Positions 4,621 to 59,904 of a DNA stretch of 64,000 nt are shown in pieces. Numbering within the stretch: position 1 is the first letter of the stretch; each line of letters begins with the position of its first letter. The notes under the pieces were generated by a model. That model had not been told where the DNA came from and searched no databases. It saw only the letters and a program-made list of their open reading frames with translations. The stretch lies in contig JARVJP010000009.1 in NCBI GenBank assembly GCA_029776065.1, positions 196,514 through 260,513 of the forward strand, written 5' to 3'. The position numbers were made by a program, and so were the translations under genes. Source of the stretch: Nitrososphaeria archaeon (GTDB lineage: Archaea; Thermoproteota; Nitrososphaeria; JACIWG01).

Positions 4621-4723
4621 GCCGGGGTGCCTGAGTGGCCAAAAGGGCCGGCCTCGAGATCTCCTTTACAAGATAGCCGGTAACGGCTCTACCGTTCCAG
4701 GGGTTCAAATCCCCTCCCCGGCG
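4621..4723 (+). tRNA. tRNA-Ser(CGA) with a ~16-nt intron in the anticodon loop
   Basis: Acceptor GCCGGGG/CCCCGGC. T-arm AGGGG-TTCAAAT-CCCCT. Long variable arm (ACGG..CCGT). Anticodon stem CCGGC/GCCGG interrupted after CUCGAG by atctcctttacaagat. Confidence 0.7.
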
Positions 4724-29260: not shown

Positions 29261-29494
29261 ATGCCATTGGCCTTTGTATTAATAAATGCGGATTTGGGGA
29301 CAGAGGAAGAATTAATTAAAGAACTTAAAAAAATAGAAGAAGTAAAAGAGGTCTATGTGGTTTATGGTGTCTATGACATTATTGCAAAAATTCAAGCAGA
29401 CACTATGGATAAAGTGAAGGACACAATAACTTGGAAGATCAGACGACTTGACAAAGTACGTTCAACACTTACGATGATTGTTGTCGAAGAATAA
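29261..29494 (+). CDS. Stand-alone RAM (Lrp/AsnC C-terminal-like) ligand-binding domain protein
   Basis: 77 aa, beta-alpha-beta-beta-alpha-beta pattern (AFVLINADLG…VKEVYVVYGVYDIIAKI…). Confidence 0.5.
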   Translation: MPLAFVLINADLGTEEELIKELKKIEEVKEVYVVYGVYDIIAKIQADTMDKVKDTITWKIRRLDKVRSTLTMIVVEE

Positions 29495-30818
29495 GGTAAT
29501 ACGACTCGCCTTAGACGACGTAGACTCCCCAACCTATGGTTGTACAACGTTTTCCTTATCGTTGATTATAAACCAGTTAATAGAAGAAAAAGTAAAGTTC
29601 TTGGATTATCCACATCTTGTTCGCCTTAACCCCAACATCCCTTGGAAGACTAGAGGAAACGGATCTGTCTCATTAACAGTGGAACACGATGATCCAGAGC
29701 ATATCTTTAGGATTGCTAAGAAAATAGTTTACAAAAGCTATGTTGAAGCAGACAAGAAATCAACTCCTGCTATTGTTTTATTTTATGGGCAAGATCTAAA
29801 TGATGAATTAATATCATTTTCTGAAGAAGCTTTGTATAAAGTTTTAAGTGTAAAAAGAGCAAAACTTCTTCTCGAAAAATATAATTTTCTCTATAAAACT
29901 TACGGCGGCGAAATCGGTCTTGTAGGCGCATTGTCTGGGTTGTCAAATACTCTAACTGAACATACTTATGAAATAATATGCTATCGTTATCCAGAAAATT
30001 ATTTAAAGCCAAGAAAAATTGACCCCTATTCAATAATTGAGATGTCCAATAAGACCTATCCTTATACGTACAATAATTATGATCCGTTAACAAATCGGAT
30101 TCTGATTACTCCACATGGTCCTGATCCAATATTTTTTGGCATCAGAGGTCTTTTTCCGAAAATACTTGTTAAAGCTTTTAATATGCTAAAAATGGAGGAA
30201 AAACCTTCACACTATGTCATATTCAAAACAAATCAAGGAACAAACTCCCATTTAAAAACATTATTTAAGATAAAAGACATTAAACCATATTATTCTGTCA
30301 AAGTTCGAGGAAAGGTTAAAACGCGTCCTATCATAAAAGAGGGCGGACATGTATTCTTTTTATTAGAAGACGAGTCTTCAAATATCACGTGCGCAGCTTA
30401 CGAACCAACTAAATCGTTTAGAAAGATCATTCTTAACCTAAGGCCTGCTGATATAATAGAAGTTGGAGGGGGTATCCGGCCTCCAACTAAGAAAGATAAT
30501 ATGACCCTAAATATAGAGTATCTTAAAGTTCTTGAACTAGCAGAAGACCTCTCATATGAGAACCCAAAGTGTTCTAAATGTGGTCGGCACATGAAATCAA
30601 TTGGGAAAGGCAAAGGTTTTAAATGTGACAAATGCAAAATAAAATCAACTACAGCAAATAAAATAGCCATTAAAAACCCAAGAAATATAAAACATGATAT
30701 ATATCTTCCCCCTCCATCTGCCCATCGTCATCTAACTAAGCCTCTTCAATACTATAGAATAGACCTAACAAAGAACTTTCTACTTGAGAAAAACCTATTT
30801 TTTAAATCATTTAAATAA
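29478..30818 (+). CDS. tiaS: tRNA(Ile2) 2-agmatinylcytidine synthetase TiaS
   Basis: N-terminus …IRLALDDVDSPTYGCTTF… (TiaS kinase-like DDxDSP…GMCTT motif). C-terminal zinc ribbon (CSKCGRHM…CDKCK). Confidence 0.65.
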   Translation: MLSKNKVIRLALDDVDSPTYGCTTFSLSLIINQLIEEKVKFLDYPHLVRLNPNIPWKTRGNGSVSLTVEHDDPEHIFRIAKKIVYKSYVEADKKSTPAIVLFYGQDLNDELISFSEEALYKVLSVKRAKLLLEKYNFLYKTYGGEIGLVGALSGLSNTLTEHTYEIICYRYPENYLKPRKIDPYSIIEMSNKTYPYTYNNYDPLTNRILITPHGPDPIFFGIRGLFPKILVKAFNMLKMEEKPSHYVIFKTNQGTNSHLKTLFKIKDIKPYYSVKVRGKVKTRPIIKEGGHVFFLLEDESSNITCAAYEPTKSFRKIILNLRPADIIEVGGGIRPPTKKDNMTLNIEYLKVLELAEDLSYENPKCSKCGRHMKSIGKGKGFKCDKCKIKSTTANKIAIKNPRNIKHDIYLPPPSAHRHLTKPLQYYRIDLTKNFLLEKNLFFKSFK

Positions 30819-30867: not shown

Positions 30868-30942
30868 AGCGAGGTGGGGAAGCTAGGTTATCCCGGCGGG
30901 CTCATAACCCGCAGATCAGTGGTTCAAATCCACTCCTCGCTA
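30868..30942 (+). tRNA. tRNA-Met(CAU), initiator-like
   Basis: Acceptor AGCGAGG/CCTCGCT (A1:U72). Anticodon stem GCGGG/CCCGC (three G-C pairs next to the loop). Loop CTCATAA. T-arm AGTGG-TTCAAAT-CCACT. Confidence 0.7.
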
Positions 30943-30983
30943 CTTCGCACAATTTTTTTTAAAAAGATTTTCTATTATCATGT

Positions 30984-32364: not shown

Positions 32365-32834
32365 TTTAAAGTCTCTTTAAATTCTTCATCTTTTATAAGA
32401 TTTAATGTTTTTCCACATCTTGGGCATTTAAACAAGTTTTCCATTGCTTCGACAAAAGGCATCTTCTTACATCCCACTGTTCCACAGTAATAAAATTCAT
32501 TCGTTTCTTCATATTCAAGCCTTTGCTTTAACTTTTCCAAGATCTTCCGTTTTTGGCTCTCAATAAAACTATCAGTTTGATCCCTACGTGCTTGCCATCT
32601 ATAAACAAACCATCCTTTCTTAGGGTCTCTTACTCTTATTCCTGATATAAGAGAATGGCCAAAGAGATCATATAATACGCGCCTAACAATGTTTATTTTA
32701 AGTCCTGTTGCACTTGCAATTTCTTCATCAGTAGCATTTTCATTATTTAGAAGAGCTCGTGCTACTCTAATATACTCCTCAGCTCCTAAAAGGCTTGCTG
32801 CTTTTACAAAGGAATCTTCATATTCAACTTTCAA
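32316..32834 (-). CDS. tfe: Transcription factor E (TFIIE-alpha homolog)
   Basis: N-terminal winged helix plus C-terminal zinc ribbon (…CGTVGCKKM…CPRCGKTL…). Confidence 0.75.
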   Translation of the reverse strand: MKVEYEDSFVKAASLLGAEEYIRVARALLNNENATDEEIASATGLKINIVRRVLYDLFGHSLISGIRVRDPKKGWFVYRWQARRDQTDSFIESQKRKILEKLKQRLEYEETNEFYYCGTVGCKKMPFVEAMENLFKCPRCGKTLNLIKDEEFKETLKWKIKQIEEELEKRTH

Positions 32835-33357
32835 TTACTTTCTTCCCCCTCTCCGTTGGCACAATAGTTAATTTGGCATCACTAAATTTTAAACCTATCT
32901 CTTTTCCCATATAAAATCGGTCTAAAAAGATCGCTAAAGCTGCAACTTCTGAATGAGGTTGATTTGTTATTGAAACATTAAAATCACTTAGTGTATAAAG
33001 TTCTTTAGGAACTTTTTCTGCTCCTATTACAACCAACTTCTTTCTCTTATCTTTTCTTATTTCATCTATTATTAAATCTACTGGTATTCCATACATTGTG
33101 AGGTGCACTATGATACCTTCTGTCTCCTTCCACTTTAATATAATTTCCTTCCAGTTTTTTTCAATGATTTGTGTTTCAAAGGGTCCTCCCCACATTTCTG
33201 TTACTTCATCAATTTTTTGTTTGATATCCTTTTCTATGCCAATAAATAAAATTCCTTTCGCTCCAAAAGCTCTGGCTACTAATCCAACATGAGTTGTAAT
33301 TCTTTTGTCACGTTCTGTTCGATGTCCCAGCCTGAGTACATATATTTCTTCTCGCAT
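32824..33357 (-). CDS. tRNA (cytidine56-2'-O)-methyltransferase aTrm56 (SPOUT)
   Basis: …VLRLGHRTERDKRITTHVGLVARAFGA…ITNQPHSEVAALAIFLDR…. The start at the internal Met (MREEIY…) is preferred over the ORF-track start at 33375. Confidence 0.65.
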   Translation of the reverse strand: MREEIYVLRLGHRTERDKRITTHVGLVARAFGAKGILFIGIEKDIKQKIDEVTEMWGGPFETQIIEKNWKEIILKWKETEGIIVHLTMYGIPVDLIIDEIRKDKRKKLVVIGAEKVPKELYTLSDFNVSITNQPHSEVAALAIFLDRFYMGKEIGLKFSDAKLTIVPTERGKKVIES

Positions 33358-34594
33358 ATTCAAGGTAAGCTTCAAATCTCTTTAAAACAGTTTTTCTTGC
33401 TATAACCTCAAGTAATAGGTAATTTTCAAGTTTTGTAGTTTTTGTTTTTGAATATTGTTTTAACCAATCCAAATTATTTGAAATTAAAGGTATGATAGAA
33501 TATTCAATGGCATATTCTTTCCGTTCCTCCCCAATTTTAAATTTAATCATTTTGAGTAATTCATCAATTCCATAGCCTGTTTTCGATGAGACAACAACAA
33601 AATAATCAAGTTTTTCACCTCTGAAGTATTCTTCAACTTCACCTATTTTGTTTTCAGATACTAAATCTTGTTTGTTTAAGACGATTACTACATCACTTAT
33701 TTCTATCCCCAATTCTTGTAAAATATTAAGGGAAGTCACATACTTTCTTTTTACTTCCTCGATCGGTTCACTTATATCAACTATTAATAGGACAACGTCA
33801 GCAAATTTTAACTCTTCTAGAGTTGATTTAAAAGCCTCTATCATATATGGTGGAATCTTTCTGATAAATCCTACGGTGTCAGAAATTAGAACATCTTTTC
33901 CACCTAAAACTCTTCTTGTAGTGGTTCTCAATGTAGTGAAAATTCGTTCTGAAACCGGAAGATTCTCCCCAGTTAAGAAATTAAAAAGTGAAGTCTTTCC
34001 CGCACCAGTGTATCCAGACAAAGATACTAACGGAATTCCCTTTTCTTCTCTTTGGGTTCGTTGAACCTTTCTTTGTTGTCTTATTTTAATCAACTTTCTG
34101 TTTAAGGATCCTATTTGCCTTTTGATTTGATTAATATAAACATCTACCTCATACTCTCCTAACCCAAAGAACCCTGGTTGTTCACCCATTTTTTCAAGTC
34201 TAACTTTGTCCTTTGCCCTTACCAATTCGTATCGTTGTTCCGCCAATTTTATCTGAAGTTTTGCTTCCCTTGTTAAAGCATGCTTTGTAAAAATTTGAAG
34301 AATTAATCTTTCTCTATCAATAATTTCTTTTTTCAAGACCTTTGCAAGGTTATATGCTTGGGTGCTACGTATTGTTTCATCAAAGATAACCTTGTCAATT
34401 TGTTGTTTTTCAATTATAGATATCAACTCTTCTAGTTTGCCTTTTCCTAAGCCATATTTTGCTCTTTTAAGATATCTTTGAGTTAATACGTCAACGACGT
34501 TATAACCTGCTGTAGTCGCTAGAGCTATAGCTTCTTTAATTATGTGCTGCTCTGGGTATGTAATAAGAACTACTTTTTCTCTCTCTGCTGTCAT
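33308..34594 (-). CDS. hflX: GTPase HflX
   Basis: HflX N-terminal domain plus G-domain (…VSLSGYTGAGKTSLFN…, …DTVGFI…, …NKQD…). Confidence 0.8.
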   Translation of the reverse strand: MTAEREKVVLITYPEQHIIKEAIALATTAGYNVVDVLTQRYLKRAKYGLGKGKLEELISIIEKQQIDKVIFDETIRSTQAYNLAKVLKKEIIDRERLILQIFTKHALTREAKLQIKLAEQRYELVRAKDKVRLEKMGEQPGFFGLGEYEVDVYINQIKRQIGSLNRKLIKIRQQRKVQRTQREEKGIPLVSLSGYTGAGKTSLFNFLTGENLPVSERIFTTLRTTTRRVLGGKDVLISDTVGFIRKIPPYMIEAFKSTLEELKFADVVLLIVDISEPIEEVKRKYVTSLNILQELGIEISDVVIVLNKQDLVSENKIGEVEEYFRGEKLDYFVVVSSKTGYGIDELLKMIKFKIGEERKEYAIEYSIIPLISNNLDWLKQYSKTKTTKLENYLLLEVIARKTVLKRFEAYLEYARRNICTQAGTSNRT

Positions 34595-37075: not shown

Positions 37076-37903
37076 TTAAATATCTTTTTTTTCTAATTTA
37101 TCCGTTCTAATAATCTTAAATTCTTCCCTTGATAATCTTTTGATTTCAGAGAGAACAATCTTATTTAAGTCTATACGATCATCTATCTGTCTTCTTTTTT
37201 TTGGATGAATAACTTTGATTAAGAAAGGCATCTCCAAATGTAATGCACCTTCAACGCCCATTATTATCACCTTCGCATCTTCTGCTTTAAAGTAAGTAAT
37301 AAAAAACTCTTTAATTGTTTTTTTAACTTCAACAGTTTCCTCCTTTACGAAATATCTTCCTGAATAAAATATTGGGCTAGTGATTATTTTTATTTCAAGT
37401 TCATCATTAAACGGTTCAAATATAATCTTTATGTCAGGATCAGAAAAATTAGTTTCTTTTCTTAAGTGTTCATTTAATTTTAATCCTACTTCCCGAACTA
37501 TTTCCTTGCGAAGGTTTTCCCCCCTCAGTTTGAACTTAGACTTAACCTTTTCTTCCTTTTCTATTAAGTTGATTGGAATCTTAACTCCACATAGAAAATT
37601 TTCAAATTCATACCCTTCTAACACATCTATTAACTTAATTACAATATCATCTGTTTTACTAAAAATATTTCCACATAAATCGCACTTTTGTTCTTCCATA
37701 ATGTCGAGAAGATCTTTCCAAGTGTATCCTTCTCTTTTTTTGCCTTTAATTCTGGTCATTGCAAAAAACTTTAGTAATACACCCTTCTCAGAATTTGAGA
37801 GTTCTGGTCTAAATTTAGGAAATTGTCTGCCTAAACATTTATCACACATATGAATTTCTCTTAAGATTTTTTCTGCTAAAGTAACCTCTCTTAGAGTCTT
37901 CAT
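37076..37903 (-). CDS. Pus10-like protein (N-terminal zinc/THUMP-like region; unusually short)
   Basis: …IHMCDKCLGRQF… (the CxxCLGRxF motif of tRNA pseudouridine synthase Pus10) and a second CDLCGN pair. Only 275 aa and no obvious catalytic Asp block. Confidence 0.35.
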   Translation of the reverse strand: MKTLREVTLAEKILREIHMCDKCLGRQFPKFRPELSNSEKGVLLKFFAMTRIKGKKREGYTWKDLLDIMEEQKCDLCGNIFSKTDDIVIKLIDVLEGYEFENFLCGVKIPINLIEKEEKVKSKFKLRGENLRKEIVREVGLKLNEHLRKETNFSDPDIKIIFEPFNDELEIKIITSPIFYSGRYFVKEETVEVKKTIKEFFITYFKAEDAKVIIMGVEGALHLEMPFLIKVIHPKKRRQIDDRIDLNKIVLSEIKRLSREEFKIIRTDKLEKKDI

Positions 37904-39888: not shown

Positions 39889-40036
39889 AAGTGCCCTCAT
39901 AACTCATAATCATCTTCATATCGTAAATTCAGACGGCTCTTCCTTCAAATCATTGGGCACCATGCATTAATCAGGTCTAGTAAAGATAAGTTTTTCCATT
40001 CAACAATGTTTAATATCTCTTAAAAAATGGATAAGG

Positions 40037-41865: not shown

Positions 41866-41955
41866 GGCCTCCGTCGGGATTTTCGAATGTTTATTTATCG
41901 AACCCGAGCCCGCGGCTCCACAGGCCACTGTGTCTACCACTACACCACGGAGGCC
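41866..41955 (-). tRNA. tRNA-His(GUG) with encoded G-1 and a 17-nt insertion (non-canonical intron) in the T-loop
   Basis: On the minus strand: G-1, acceptor GCCUCCG/CGGAGGC, discriminator C. D-arm GUGU/ACAC. Anticodon stem GUGGC/GCCGC with loop CUGUGGA. T-stem UCGGG/CCCGA enclosing UUCGA[UAAAUAAACAUUCGAAA]AU. Confidence 0.6.
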
Positions 41956-42007
41956 ACACACCAAAAGGAGAAAGAACGCTGTATTAAATTTAATCCTTTA
42001 ATAATTT

Positions 42008-49390: not shown

Positions 49391-50815
49391 GTGTTTTACG
49401 GTGGTGAAGTGTTTTACGGTGGTCAGCAAAAAACGCTTATTGGTGCAACAAATCCAGAGGAGGAATATATAGAACTAATTACTAAAGACTACAGTTTTCA
49501 GGAGGCTTTTGATGCTCTAGATAGAATAGACTGGGATTTTAAAGATTTTACAACCCAATATCTTACACATACATTCCATTCATACCCTGCTAGGTTCATA
49601 CCTCAAATACCTCTAACATTCATTAAACTATTCACAAAGGAGAAAGAAATTGTTCTAGACCCTATGTGTGGAAGTGGAACTACATTAGTGGAAGCCTTTT
49701 TGAACAATAGACATTCAATTGGTAATGACCTTAATCCACTTGCAACTTTAATAACTAAAGTAAAGACTACTTTGATCAGTGAAGATGAGTTCAGATATTT
49801 AGATAAAAGATTATCAGTTATGAAACATTACTTAGACCTAGATTACGGAAGGATTAATGAAAGAATTAATAATTTACCAAGTAGAAAAATAAGCAAGATA
49901 TTTAACAGAGTTATAATCTCAAAATTAGAAAGTATTCGTGAAACTTTGTTAGAAATTAGAGAAGAAGGATACAACGATTTATTTGATTTTGGAAGAGTTG
50001 CTTTATCTTCAGCTATCTGGTCATTAGTGGAAAATGGTGGAGGAATAGACATCGATATGATTTTCCTAAAAAAGGTAAAATCTATGCAGAATGAGATTAT
50101 GGAAATGAATAGGATTATTAAAGTCATTCCAACAGTAAAAGTGATTTGCGGAGATTCAAGGAAATTAGATGTAGACACTAATTTAACAGATTTAATAATA
50201 ACGTCTCCTCCTTATGTAAACGCTCTTGATTATTATAGAGTTCATATGTACAACATGCTTTGGCTCGGCATGGACTTTGACTTGTTTAGAAAACACGAAA
50301 TAGGAGGACATTCCCATTTTATTAATAATAGGTTTAGACTACTTTCAGAATATTTGGGCGACATGTTACGTTCGTTGATTGAGATGAATAGAGTTTTGAA
50401 AAAAAATAAATTGTGCGTAATCGTTGTCGGAAATTCAAGCTTAGAATACGAATTGATTGAAAGTCATAAGTTTTTTGCAGAAATGGGTGAAAAAATAGGA
50501 TTTAAGCCATTAAGAACAATTTTTAGAAATATTGACATAACAAAGAAATATTCAAGCACAGACATAGGAAAAATTAATGATGAATACATCCTTATTATGC
50601 AAAAAATAAATGATGCCCAGGTTACTGCGAAAAATGACAATTTTATTTCCGATATTGTAAGAGAAGAAATGATAAAATTTAGAGAACGAATAAAGGAACA
50701 TCAGGGTACTTCTATTAAAGGTAGGAAACCAACTAGAGAAAGATTATTGAAGAACGTCGATAAAATCAACGAAGCCATAGAAAAAATACCTGAAGACACA
50801 AGAATAAAGGAGTAA
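49391..50815 (+). CDS. DNA methyltransferase (N4-cytosine / N6-adenine amino-MTase family; SPPY motif)
   Basis: Motif X/I …FHSYPARFIPQIP…VLDPMCGSGTTLVEA…. Motif IV …IITSPPYVNALDYY…. Confidence 0.75.
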   Translation: MFYGGEVFYGGQQKTLIGATNPEEEYIELITKDYSFQEAFDALDRIDWDFKDFTTQYLTHTFHSYPARFIPQIPLTFIKLFTKEKEIVLDPMCGSGTTLVEAFLNNRHSIGNDLNPLATLITKVKTTLISEDEFRYLDKRLSVMKHYLDLDYGRINERINNLPSRKISKIFNRVIISKLESIRETLLEIREEGYNDLFDFGRVALSSAIWSLVENGGGIDIDMIFLKKVKSMQNEIMEMNRIIKVIPTVKVICGDSRKLDVDTNLTDLIITSPPYVNALDYYRVHMYNMLWLGMDFDLFRKHEIGGHSHFINNRFRLLSEYLGDMLRSLIEMNRVLKKNKLCVIVVGNSSLEYELIESHKFFAEMGEKIGFKPLRTIFRNIDITKKYSSTDIGKINDEYILIMQKINDAQVTAKNDNFISDIVREEMIKFRERIKEHQGTSIKGRKPTRERLLKNVDKINEAIEKIPEDTRIKE

Positions 50816-50821
50816 AACGTA

Positions 50822-51796
50822 ATGAAAGAATTTATTGGTAAAATAATATATTCAATTCTTAAAGGTCAAGACTATAGAACCTATGTTCTTGCGATAATAA
50901 ACAAAAGATTTGTCGATAAAACCCAAGAGTTAATTTCTGAAATCTATGAATATAAACAAAAAGGTGATAATTGGTTTGAAAAACTCTTGGATGACACCTT
51001 TAAAAAGAGGGGGAAGGAGAATAAATTTAGGCTTCTCTGGTTTGGTGGTTTAAACGATAAGACTGTAAAAAACATGACTGGAGGGACATCAGAAAAAGAA
51101 GTGTGTCTCGATTTAGGTAAGAAAAATATGAAGGCTTTAAGACTTTTGTTAGAAGAAGCAGAGCGCCGTGAGAACAATTTCAGTATTAGAATAATAATTA
51201 AAAAAGATCAAAATCAAATCGAATTAGATCATGTTGAAAGTCTATTTTTTATTAATATTATTTCAGCGATGAAATTAACAATTCAAGGAGGAGCTTGGAG
51301 TGAGGTAGGTAAACAAACTGAAAAGTGTCTACTTTTTGTTATATTTAATTTATTGGAAATTCCAAAAGAACACTATATTTTAACAACTGATGAGATGAAG
51401 AAAAAAGGGTTAATTGGGAATAGAGAAATTGATGCATTAGTTTTTACTAAAAACAAAGAGCCTTTAACCATTGAGTTAAAACTACTTGGAATAGGAAACC
51501 CAGAAATAGGCGATGAAGCGCTTGCTAGGAAAGTGAATTTATTCCTTATAGATAGACTCACAGACATGATGAAAAAAGAATCTGAAAAAATAGGAGTCAA
51601 GGTGATCGAGTTCAGACAAGAAAATTCATTAATGGAAATATTCAATTTTTTCAAGTTAAAAAATGTAGACTGTAAACTACCAGAGCAACTTACATCAAAA
51701 AAATTAGAAAGTCGAATAAACGAAATAATAATGGAATGGGGAGAAGAATCAGAAGATTTGAAAGTTATTAAGAAATTAAGAGACTGGACAAAATGA
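50822..51796 (+). CDS. Putative restriction endonuclease partner of the MTase (PD-(D/E)xK-like)
   Basis: Starts 7 nt after the MTase stop. Contains …EIDALVFTKNKEPLTIELKLLG… (D…ExK spacing compatible with a PD-(D/E)xK core). Confidence 0.4.
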   Translation: MKEFIGKIIYSILKGQDYRTYVLAIINKRFVDKTQELISEIYEYKQKGDNWFEKLLDDTFKKRGKENKFRLLWFGGLNDKTVKNMTGGTSEKEVCLDLGKKNMKALRLLLEEAERRENNFSIRIIIKKDQNQIELDHVESLFFINIISAMKLTIQGGAWSEVGKQTEKCLLFVIFNLLEIPKEHYILTTDEMKKKGLIGNREIDALVFTKNKEPLTIELKLLGIGNPEIGDEALARKVNLFLIDRLTDMMKKESEKIGVKVIEFRQENSLMEIFNFFKLKNVDCKLPEQLTSKKLESRINEIIMEWGEESEDLKVIKKLRDWTK

Positions 51797-59560: not shown

Positions 59561-59693
59561 TGGGGCTAGTGGGACTTGAACCCACGGCTTACGGGTATCT
59601 TCACCCAGCTCCAAAGCTACATCATCCAAGGTAGTCAGCATACCCATATTTTGTTCTGGAGCCCGTTGTCCTTCCTTGCTGGACGATAGCCCC
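59561..59693 (-). tRNA. tRNA-Trp(CCA) with a ~60-nt intron in the anticodon loop
   Basis: Minus strand: acceptor GGGGCUA/UAGCCCC. D-arm GUCC-AGCAAGGAA-GGAC. Anticodon stem ACGGG … CCCGU with loop CUCCAG|intron|A. T-arm GUGGG-UUCAAGU-CCCAC. The intron contains AUGAUGU and CUGA box-like elements. Confidence 0.65.
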
Positions 59694-59787
59694 TTCTAGC
59701 AAATCAAACCATTGATTAAGTGGAAAATAAAAGTTTTCCATCAATAAAATAAAGATTTAATTAGGAGTAATTTGAGCGTAATGTTCA

Positions 59788-59904
59788 GCCGGCCATAGTG
59801 ATGTGGGATCTACCTGGTCTCGTCAGACCCCAGAAGTCAAACCATATCACGCCTTTGCGTTAGTGATGTGCAGAAGCCATCGCGAAGCAGAGGTGCCGGC
59901 GCCT
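59788..59904 (+). rRNA. rrf: 5S rRNA-like gene (orphan)
   Basis: About 117 nt and GC-rich, with paired ends (GCCGGCC…GGUGCCGGCGCC). 5' CCAUAG. GGUCUCGUCAGACCCCAGAAGUCAAAC resembles 5S loop C/helix III (…CCGAAC..GAAGUUAAGC…). Confidence 0.5.

Follow-up and report, generated by a model that had tools for sequence, protein, structure and literature searches.

A tRNA-His(GUG) gene of a Nitrososphaeria archaeon with a probable 17-nucleotide protein-spliced intron in the T-loop

Archaeal tRNA introns at non-canonical positions, the T-loop included, have long been established, and EndA cleavage followed by RtcB ligation is the established pathway by which archaeal tRNAs are spliced. The systems closest to the one considered here come from ARMAN-2, in which pre-tRNA-Cys(GCA) has a 13-nt intron at position 59/60 that is cleaved in vitro by the host endonuclease (PMC3239211), and pre-tRNA-Pro(GGG) has introns at both 53/54 and 59/60 with the strict hBHBh' form of the motif called bulge-helix-bulge (BHB) (Fujishima et al., 2011; PMC3239211). 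For the Thaumarchaeota, 107 non-canonical introns were counted in 11 genomes, an average of about 10 per genome, in genes of a kind that earlier finders had missed, and tRNAscan-SE 2.0 has a BHB model for the phylum, Thaum-BHB-noncan.cm (PMC8450103). The D-loop intron of pre-tRNA-Thr2(UGU) in Aeropyrum pernix needs neither guide RNA nor modifications for its removal, which the (alpha-beta)2 form of EndA carries out by itself (Hirata et al., 2011; PMC3241643). Location of an intron in the T arm tends to accompany EndA types of broad specificity (PMC4090602; PMC3239211).

We analysed a 64,000-nt stretch of DNA (the window) and conclude that positions 41955 to 41866 of its minus strand are very probably a functional Nitrososphaeria tRNA-His(GUG) gene with a 17-nt, protein-spliced intron at 59/60. 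The locus has its insert at the same site as the ARMAN-2 genes, the T stem likewise serving as outer helix, and like the ARMAN-2 tRNA-Pro it has the strict hBHBh' motif. The ARMAN-2 examples are Cys and Pro tRNAs of a DPANN/Micrarchaeota lineage with an epsilon2 endonuclease, whereas the window gene is a tRNA-His of the Nitrososphaeria, for which an (alpha-beta)2 enzyme is expected; cleavage of the ARMAN-2 Cys intron is a biochemical result, that of the window intron a prediction. In phylum and in class of feature the locus matches the Thaumarchaeota introns already catalogued, but its source is a Nitrososphaeria lineage that is uncultured and AT-rich (33% GC) and of which few relatives have been sequenced. 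The A. pernix intron is likewise a BHB intron at a non-standard position, but it lies in the D-loop of a tRNA from a crenarchaeal hyperthermophile, and that of the window in the T-loop.

Non-canonical BHB introns, the 59/60 site and the abundance of such introns in the Thaumarchaeota are all established already, and the window locus is a well-supported example of a known phenomenon that opens no new question. It adds a strongly covarying, strict BHB example at 59/60 from an under-sampled lineage of the Nitrososphaeria. The one aspect for which we found no match in the literature is the recurrence of the intron in tRNA-His specifically, at one position, in several archaeal phyla; we found no published statement on tRNA-His at 59/60 in particular, '59/60' being unusable as a text query. 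An initial sequence-only reading had presented the intron as a rarity informative about the lineage. The lineage of the host archaeon is indeed known for such introns, but the feature is less rare and less diagnostic than that reading implied, because 59/60 is a documented site and the same tRNA-His intron occurs in several other phyla.

The tRNA-His(GUG) gene and its predicted splice substrate

The gene and the elements assigned to it are as follows, with the evidence for each in brackets.

41866–41955, minus strand: complete pre-tRNA-His(GUG), 90 nt (direct reading; ARAGORN after removal of 17 nt; Rfam for the 5' part)
41955, 41954 and 41866, minus strand: G-1, position 1 and discriminator C73, respectively (direct reading)
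41919–41921, minus strand: anticodon GUG (direct reading and ARAGORN on the spliced form)
41897–41955, minus strand: 5' exon, 59 nt including G-1, with the 3' end ...UCGGG UUCGAU (U59) (BHB geometry; exons of syntenic relatives identical or near-identical)
41866–41879, minus strand: 3' exon, 14 nt, made up of U60, CCCGA (T stem), CGGAGGC (acceptor) and C73 (direct reading, ARAGORN, geometry)
41880–41896, minus strand: the 17-nt stretch AAAUAAACAUUCGAAAA, predicted to be an intron at 59/60 (T arm read by the 3-4-3 rule; variation between alleles with the same exons falls within it)
41899–41902, minus strand: 5' strand of the BHB central helix, U54 U55 C56 G57, exonic (pairs with 41885–41882)
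41882–41885, minus strand: 3' strand of the BHB central helix, CGAA, intronic (pairing conserved in homologues)
41896–41898, minus strand: 5' bulge, A58 U59 / A, predicted to be cut at 41897/41896 (always 3 nt, A-N-A/U, in 23 distinct genes)
41879–41881, minus strand: 3' bulge, A A / U60, predicted to be cut at 41880/41879; abuts the T stem (always 3 nt, A-N-U)
41886–41895, minus strand: inner hairpin h', AAU (41895–41893), loop AAAC, AUU (41888–41886) (covariation)
41982–41993, minus strand: TATA-box-like A/T-rich element TTAAATTTAATA, ending 27 nt upstream of G-1 (recurs in relatives)

From 41955 to 41866 the minus strand reads GGCCUCCG UG GUGU AGUGGUAG ACAC A GUGGC CUGUGGA GCCGC GGGC UCGGG UUCGAUAAAUAAACAUUCGAAAAU CCCGA CGGAGGC C. 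This comprises a 7-bp acceptor stem (GCCUCCG/CGGAGGC) topped by the G-1:C73 pair, a D stem of 4 bp, a 5-bp anticodon stem (GUGGC/GCCGC) with the loop CUGUGGA, a variable region of 4 nt and a T stem of 5 bp (UCGGG/CCCGA), whose loop has 24 nt (UUCGAUAAAUAAACAUUCGAAAAU) in place of the usual 7. CCA is absent from the gene, and TTC lies directly 3' of C73. The sequence-only reading had called a tRNA-His(GUG) with an encoded G-1 and 17 extra nucleotides inside the T-loop; the count is correct, and the identity is borne out both by direct reading and by ARAGORN on the spliced sequence. A similar A/T-rich element stands at the same distance upstream in related loci, as TTAAAATTAATATA in L001–L004 and as TTTTAATATA in L005 and L006, and it is plausible that TTAAATTTAATA is a candidate archaeal promoter of the tRNA-His gene.

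Default gene finders pass over the locus, as had been anticipated. In the window, ARAGORN at default settings called 5 other tRNAs and missed it, nor did the program make a call on the bare 90-nt precursor. Rfam at the gathering score listed 7 tRNAs, an RNase P RNA and a 5S rRNA in the window but lacked this tRNA, which was still unlisted when the entire window was searched with an E-value threshold; in a local E-value search with the Rfam tRNA model the 5' part alone (41899–41954) scored 18.4 bits, against a gathering score of 29. Once 17 nt are deleted, in any of seven registers, ARAGORN recognises a tRNA-His(gtg) of 74 nt, its acceptor stem having the 8 bp typical of tRNA-His, and excision at the bulges gives a canonical cloverleaf with a T-loop of 7 nt. 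The spliced form has the GUG anticodon, the G-1:C73 pair and the standard cloverleaf of a tRNA-His. The complete 90-mer folds better than all of 200 dinucleotide shuffles (z = -4.1).

No second tRNA-His was found within the 64-kb window by ARAGORN, Rfam or a regular-expression scan. The scan covered both strands and sought a T stem, TTCR, 3 nt, an insert, 4 nt complementary to the TTCR, 3 nt and the other strand of the T stem; it returned the tRNA-His site, an artefactual extension of that site and one match with a long gap, which lies within an ORF and has no tRNA around it. This gene is probably the only tRNA-His of the lineage, and since ARAGORN and Rfam at its gathering score both miss it, naive annotation would report a genome that lacks tRNA-His. 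A split or permuted tRNA gene, the halves of which would be found at separate loci or in reversed order, was also considered and is ruled out, since the two exons lie contiguously and in collinear order in a stretch of 90 nt.

The earlier proposal that the insert is a BHB splice substrate is supported, by a strict motif as well as by the covariation described below. In order, the precursor presents T stem, UUCG, AUA, aat-AAAC-att, CGAA, AAU and T stem, which is the strict hBHBh' arrangement with 3-4-3 spacing, and the T stem (UCGGG/CCCGA) is the outer helix h. The T-arm motif is an exact transposition of the layout at the canonical site, with positions 54–60 in the place of 32–38. As at a canonical 37/38 intron of Archaea or eukaryotes, a 5-bp stem closes a loop of 7 nt, the first four bases of which are paired with the 3' end of the intron, the 3' bulge abuts the stem and the 3' exon starts one base before it; the difference is that the window intron lies in the T arm, so that the elbow of the mature domain cannot form before splicing. 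The second UUCGA, which the sequence-only reading had taken as a partial repeat of the loop, is present but does not represent a duplication: UUCGAA is self-complementary, and the second copy, which pairs with the first, supplies the central BHB helix with its 3' strand.

The inner helix of the window allele is weak, with three A-U pairs only. By nearest-neighbour energies a 5-bp helix plus loop (-36.1 kcal/mol) is preferred over the strict motif (-32.1 kcal/mol), so the substrate may act in vivo as a relaxed hBH, a form that endonucleases of broad specificity accept (PMC3239211).

Conservation and covariation among homologues

The gene order MoaE–tRNA–SDR is kept in relatives whose MoaE proteins are 86% and 64–66% identical to that of the window, and in all of them the tRNA carries an insert, of 17, 18 or 20 nt. 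Their tRNA exons are identical or compensatorily changed, as at pair 27:43, where G-C has become A-U in L005. To look further we scanned 185,579 genomes, one per species, with a pattern that ends at A58 and is therefore agnostic to the intron. This yielded 117 stretches, which were parsed into 96 distinct tRNA-His genes, 73 of them intronless and 23 bearing an insert precisely at the 59/60 site, the latter being the window gene and 22 others. The organisms that bear the intron are labelled Nitrososphaeria/Thaumarchaeota/Nitrososphaerales, Conexivisphaera, Bathyarchaeota, Hadarchaeota, Baldrarchaeota, Woesearchaeota and other DPANN. An encoded G-1 with C73 is ordinary in this set, occurring in 92 of the 96 parsed genes (23/23 intron-bearing and 69/73 intronless).

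Inserts in the 23 genes range from 15 to 41 nt, with one of 105 nt. Both bulges are 3 nt long in every gene (A-N-A/U and A-N-U), and all but one have the four central-helix pairs. The inner helix is of 2–5 bp in most of them and its sequences are unrelated between lineages; examples are aat/att, ggcc/ggcc, cacc/ggtg, tcgg/ccga, gtcc/ggac and cgcgg/ccgcg. For covariation we used a MAFFT alignment of 20 sequences in which the structure was specified as the BHB motif. Standard pairs fill 99.6% of its cells, and all four inner-helix pairs show changes on both sides, the first being AU in 7 sequences, GC in 7, CG in 3, GU in 2 and UA in 1. None of 500 column shuffles matched either the covariation score or the percentage paired, and sliding the partners by one column reduced pairing to 67% or 56%. 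The four pairs of the central helix (UA, UA or UG, CG, GC) are kept in 20/20 homologues. Because the search pattern prescribed the T stem and the UUCG, the fact that they do not vary counts for nothing; it left free the strand on the intron side (CGAA/CGGA) and the inner helix.

In 241 million metagenome records we found no intronless allele of this clade's exons, allowing any base at position 59. The same exons with a gap of 8–38 nt were present on 12 metagenome contigs as seven distinct alleles, all of which fit the motif. In the 20 aligned sequences, base pairing is conserved by compensatory change while the intron sequence drifts, in the manner of a BHB intron. At the level of sequence evolution, these comparisons show a tRNA-His gene under purifying selection with a conserved, covarying predicted endonuclease substrate.

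Several individual loci depart from the common pattern. The 105-nt intron is in a Woesearchaeota gene (L071, JAPLZS010000014.1), and two genes labelled DPANN, L015 and L055, have introns of 41 and 29 nt at tRNA-His 59/60; in L055 the central helix contains a G57-A mismatch, and in L015 the inner helix beside the bulge is all but missing. Two Bathyarchaeota chromosomes (L063, CP070679.1, and L026, CP070759.1) and one locus labelled Promethearchaeati (L084) contain tRNA-His-like 3' parts with a normal T-loop, the upstream sequence of which fails to pair with the 3' acceptor strand. To judge by this sequence, each may have an intron or a split in its 5' half.

The distribution of the 59/60 intron could be read as a sign of an old origin, with vertical inheritance and maintenance by selection in several archaeal phyla, as opposed to independent recent gains at a hot spot. 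The basis for this is the identical position and layout of bulges and helices in all 23 genes, together with a clade that has no intronless allele. We regard such a history as rather doubtful; the identical position and layout would fit common descent or recurrent insertion alike. Were the intron old and maintained, it could serve to force modification of the T-loop (Psi54/55, Cm56, m1A58) to follow splicing, or to mask the T-arm and 3' end of the gene as an integration target.

Alternative readings and the position of the intron

An obvious concern is that the insert is never removed, and that the locus is either a pseudogene in decay or a tRNA-like RNA whose T-loop is enlarged, while a working tRNA-His gene lies elsewhere in the genome. 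Rejection of the unspliced form by ARAGORN and by Rfam at its gathering score is in keeping with this, and the portion of the genome scanned was 64 kb. However, the exons are conserved, with compensatory changes, in relatives whose neighbouring protein is only 64–66% identical; the insert evolves in a way that keeps the splice motif; the 241 million metagenome records held no intronless allele; and the window has no other tRNA-His. The D-loop/T-loop elbow is needed by every elongator tRNA, and a T-loop of 24 nt would destroy it. Taken together these observations make permanent retention of the insert very improbable. The second occurrence of UUCGA looks at first sight like a short direct repeat, which could point to a mobile-element scar or target duplication, or to a self-splicing group I or II intron in place of one of the endonuclease type. 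Yet the repeat is the self-complementary UUCGAA, its second copy being the partner of the first, and unrelated introns in homologues keep the same pairing scheme over lengths of 15 to 105 nt. Mobile-element genes are absent from the vicinity of the locus. Group I and II introns have a catalytic RNA core of hundreds of nucleotides; the insert, at 17 nt, is far below the size of any ribozyme intron, and no Rfam intron family matched at the locus. We give an origin of either kind next to no credence. An endonuclease-spliced intron is the reading that we retain.

The exact position of that intron is a finer question, on which the two other intron-bearing tRNA genes of the window are helpful.

4621–4723, plus strand: tRNA-Ser(CGA) with a 16-nt intron at 37/38 (4659–4674) (Rfam, 44.9 bits; missed by ARAGORN)
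59561–59693, minus strand: tRNA-Trp(CCA) with a 59-nt intron at 37/38 (59597–59655)

For both, U33, the anticodon and a purine at 37 are obtained with a single junction, the one in which the 3' exon starts exactly one base before the stem. The cut then lies behind the second nucleotide of a bulge of 3 nt that the pair to position 32 closes, and we used these two introns to calibrate the rule that each 3-nt bulge is cut after its second nucleotide. Applied to the T arm, the rule places the intron at 59/60, with the mature loop UUCGAUU and a predicted junction of ...GGGUUCGAU with UCCCGA. The sequence-only reading had put it at about 58/59, with the loop UUCGAAU, which is probably off by one given the strict 3-4-3 geometry.

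The 58/59 register deserves consideration, since it concerns the same intron with cuts after the first base of each bulge, by which UAAAUAAACAUUCGAAA, equal in length to the 59/60 intron, would be removed. These cuts would remain symmetric, ARAGORN again returns a tRNA-His (k=5), the mature forms predicted for the two registers fold equally well, and UUCGAAU is the commonest loop of the intronless genes (37/73). UUCGAUU is also common there, at 16/73, and because both loops are common the frequencies at N59 do not discriminate between the splice models. Allele variation is more informative. Between three alleles with identical exons (L126, L130 and L133), all differences fall in the intron loop or at the middle base of the 3' bulge (U, G and A), and the window differs from L001 by one loop base and that same middle base only; among genes with identical exons the base may be A, G, U or C. 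If the 58/59 register were true, this would be the sole variable exon position, which modestly favours 59/60, and variation of the 3' base (A/G/U) while the 5' bulge stays constant is what would be expected of an intronic nucleotide. Cutting after the first bulge base also conflicts with the canonical introns of the window, in which the 3' exon must start exactly one base before the stem, and the site named in the literature for T-loop introns is 59/60, not 58/59 (PMC3239211). We consider the 58/59 register unlikely; on the geometric rule and a few polymorphisms, the intron is probably at 59/60.

The motif of the tRNA-Ser(CGA) intron is a relaxed BHB, with a C34-A mismatch in the 4-bp helix and an inner helix that is almost absent, and compares unfavourably with the tRNA-His motif; the central helix of tRNA-Trp(CCA) also has a C34-A mismatch. 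The tRNA-Trp intron contains CUGA and AUGAUGU, which are box D'/C'-like, and a UGGAGC complementary to G31–A36 of the tRNA, and it recalls the C/D-box guide introns of euryarchaeal tRNA-Trp; the motifs are present, but no consistent order of C, D, C' and D' could be derived from this intron.

Splicing machinery, host and neighbouring genes

Under the scheme that we favour, the T stem of the precursor would act as the outer helix, U54–G57 would pair with the CGAA at the 3' end of the intron as a 4-bp central helix, A58-U59-A and A-A-U60 would form the two 3-nt bulges and the AAU-AAAC-AUU hairpin would close the intron. Each bulge would be cut behind its second base by EndA, which in this phylum is expected to be a heterotetramer of the (alpha-beta)2 type, and an RtcB-type ligase would join the exons to give a 73-nt tRNA with the T-loop UUCGAUU, releasing the intron. 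Cleavage, the exact cut sites, the type of enzyme and ligation are all steps that we infer. Neither EndA nor RtcB turned up in a Pfam search that covered all 64 non-overlapping ORFs of 90 aa or more in the window, and the enzyme type is therefore drawn from the literature for the phylum, in which Thaumarchaeota have (alpha-beta)2 EndA (PMC4090602). A T-arm intron of this kind implies an EndA of broad specificity in the lineage. The window also contains genes for two enzymes that modify the T-loop:

32824–33375, minus strand: aTrm56 (Cm56)
37076–37903, minus strand: Pus10 (Psi54/55)

With U54, U55 and C56 locked in the central BHB helix, modification by both would presumably follow splicing.

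The host is an archaeon by several features of the window: an archaeal RNase P RNA (Rfam), the two further introns at 37/38 and the MoaE gene, which ends 4 nt from the tRNA-His and whose product is 100% identical to a protein from a Nitrososphaeria archaeon MAG. Only 17 homologues of this MoaE were found among 5.8 billion proteins, the next closest being 86% identical; the source lineage is thinly sampled. The G+C content of the window is about 33%.

Other features of the window are these:

about 39899–39961, minus strand: probable archaeal sRNA of the C/D box class, flanked by the genes for aIF5A and NAD kinase
29478–30818, plus strand: TiaS (agmatidine synthase for tRNA-Ile2)
30868–30943, plus strand: tRNA with a CAU anticodon, labelled Met by ARAGORN, 50 nt downstream of TiaS
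59785–59904, plus strand: 5S rRNA gene, standing alone in a window without 16S or 23S rRNA and adjoining tRNA-Trp
49391–51796, plus strand: restriction-modification pair that consists of an N6/N4 DNA methylase and a restriction endonuclease of the CfrBI type (E = 1e-104)

The putative sRNA has a terminal stem (GGUGCCC/GGGCAC), a C box (AAUGAUU), a D' box (CUGA), a C' box (AUGAAGA) and a D-like UGAG, and its sole Rfam match, to SNORD97, is below threshold (36 bits against 45). The CAU tRNA that follows TiaS may be the substrate of that enzyme, tRNA-Ile2(CAU). The restriction-modification pair lies in the stretch of the window with the lowest G+C (0.309) and adjoins several ORFs without Pfam matches (52–59 kb), and this stretch is possibly mobile or recently acquired.
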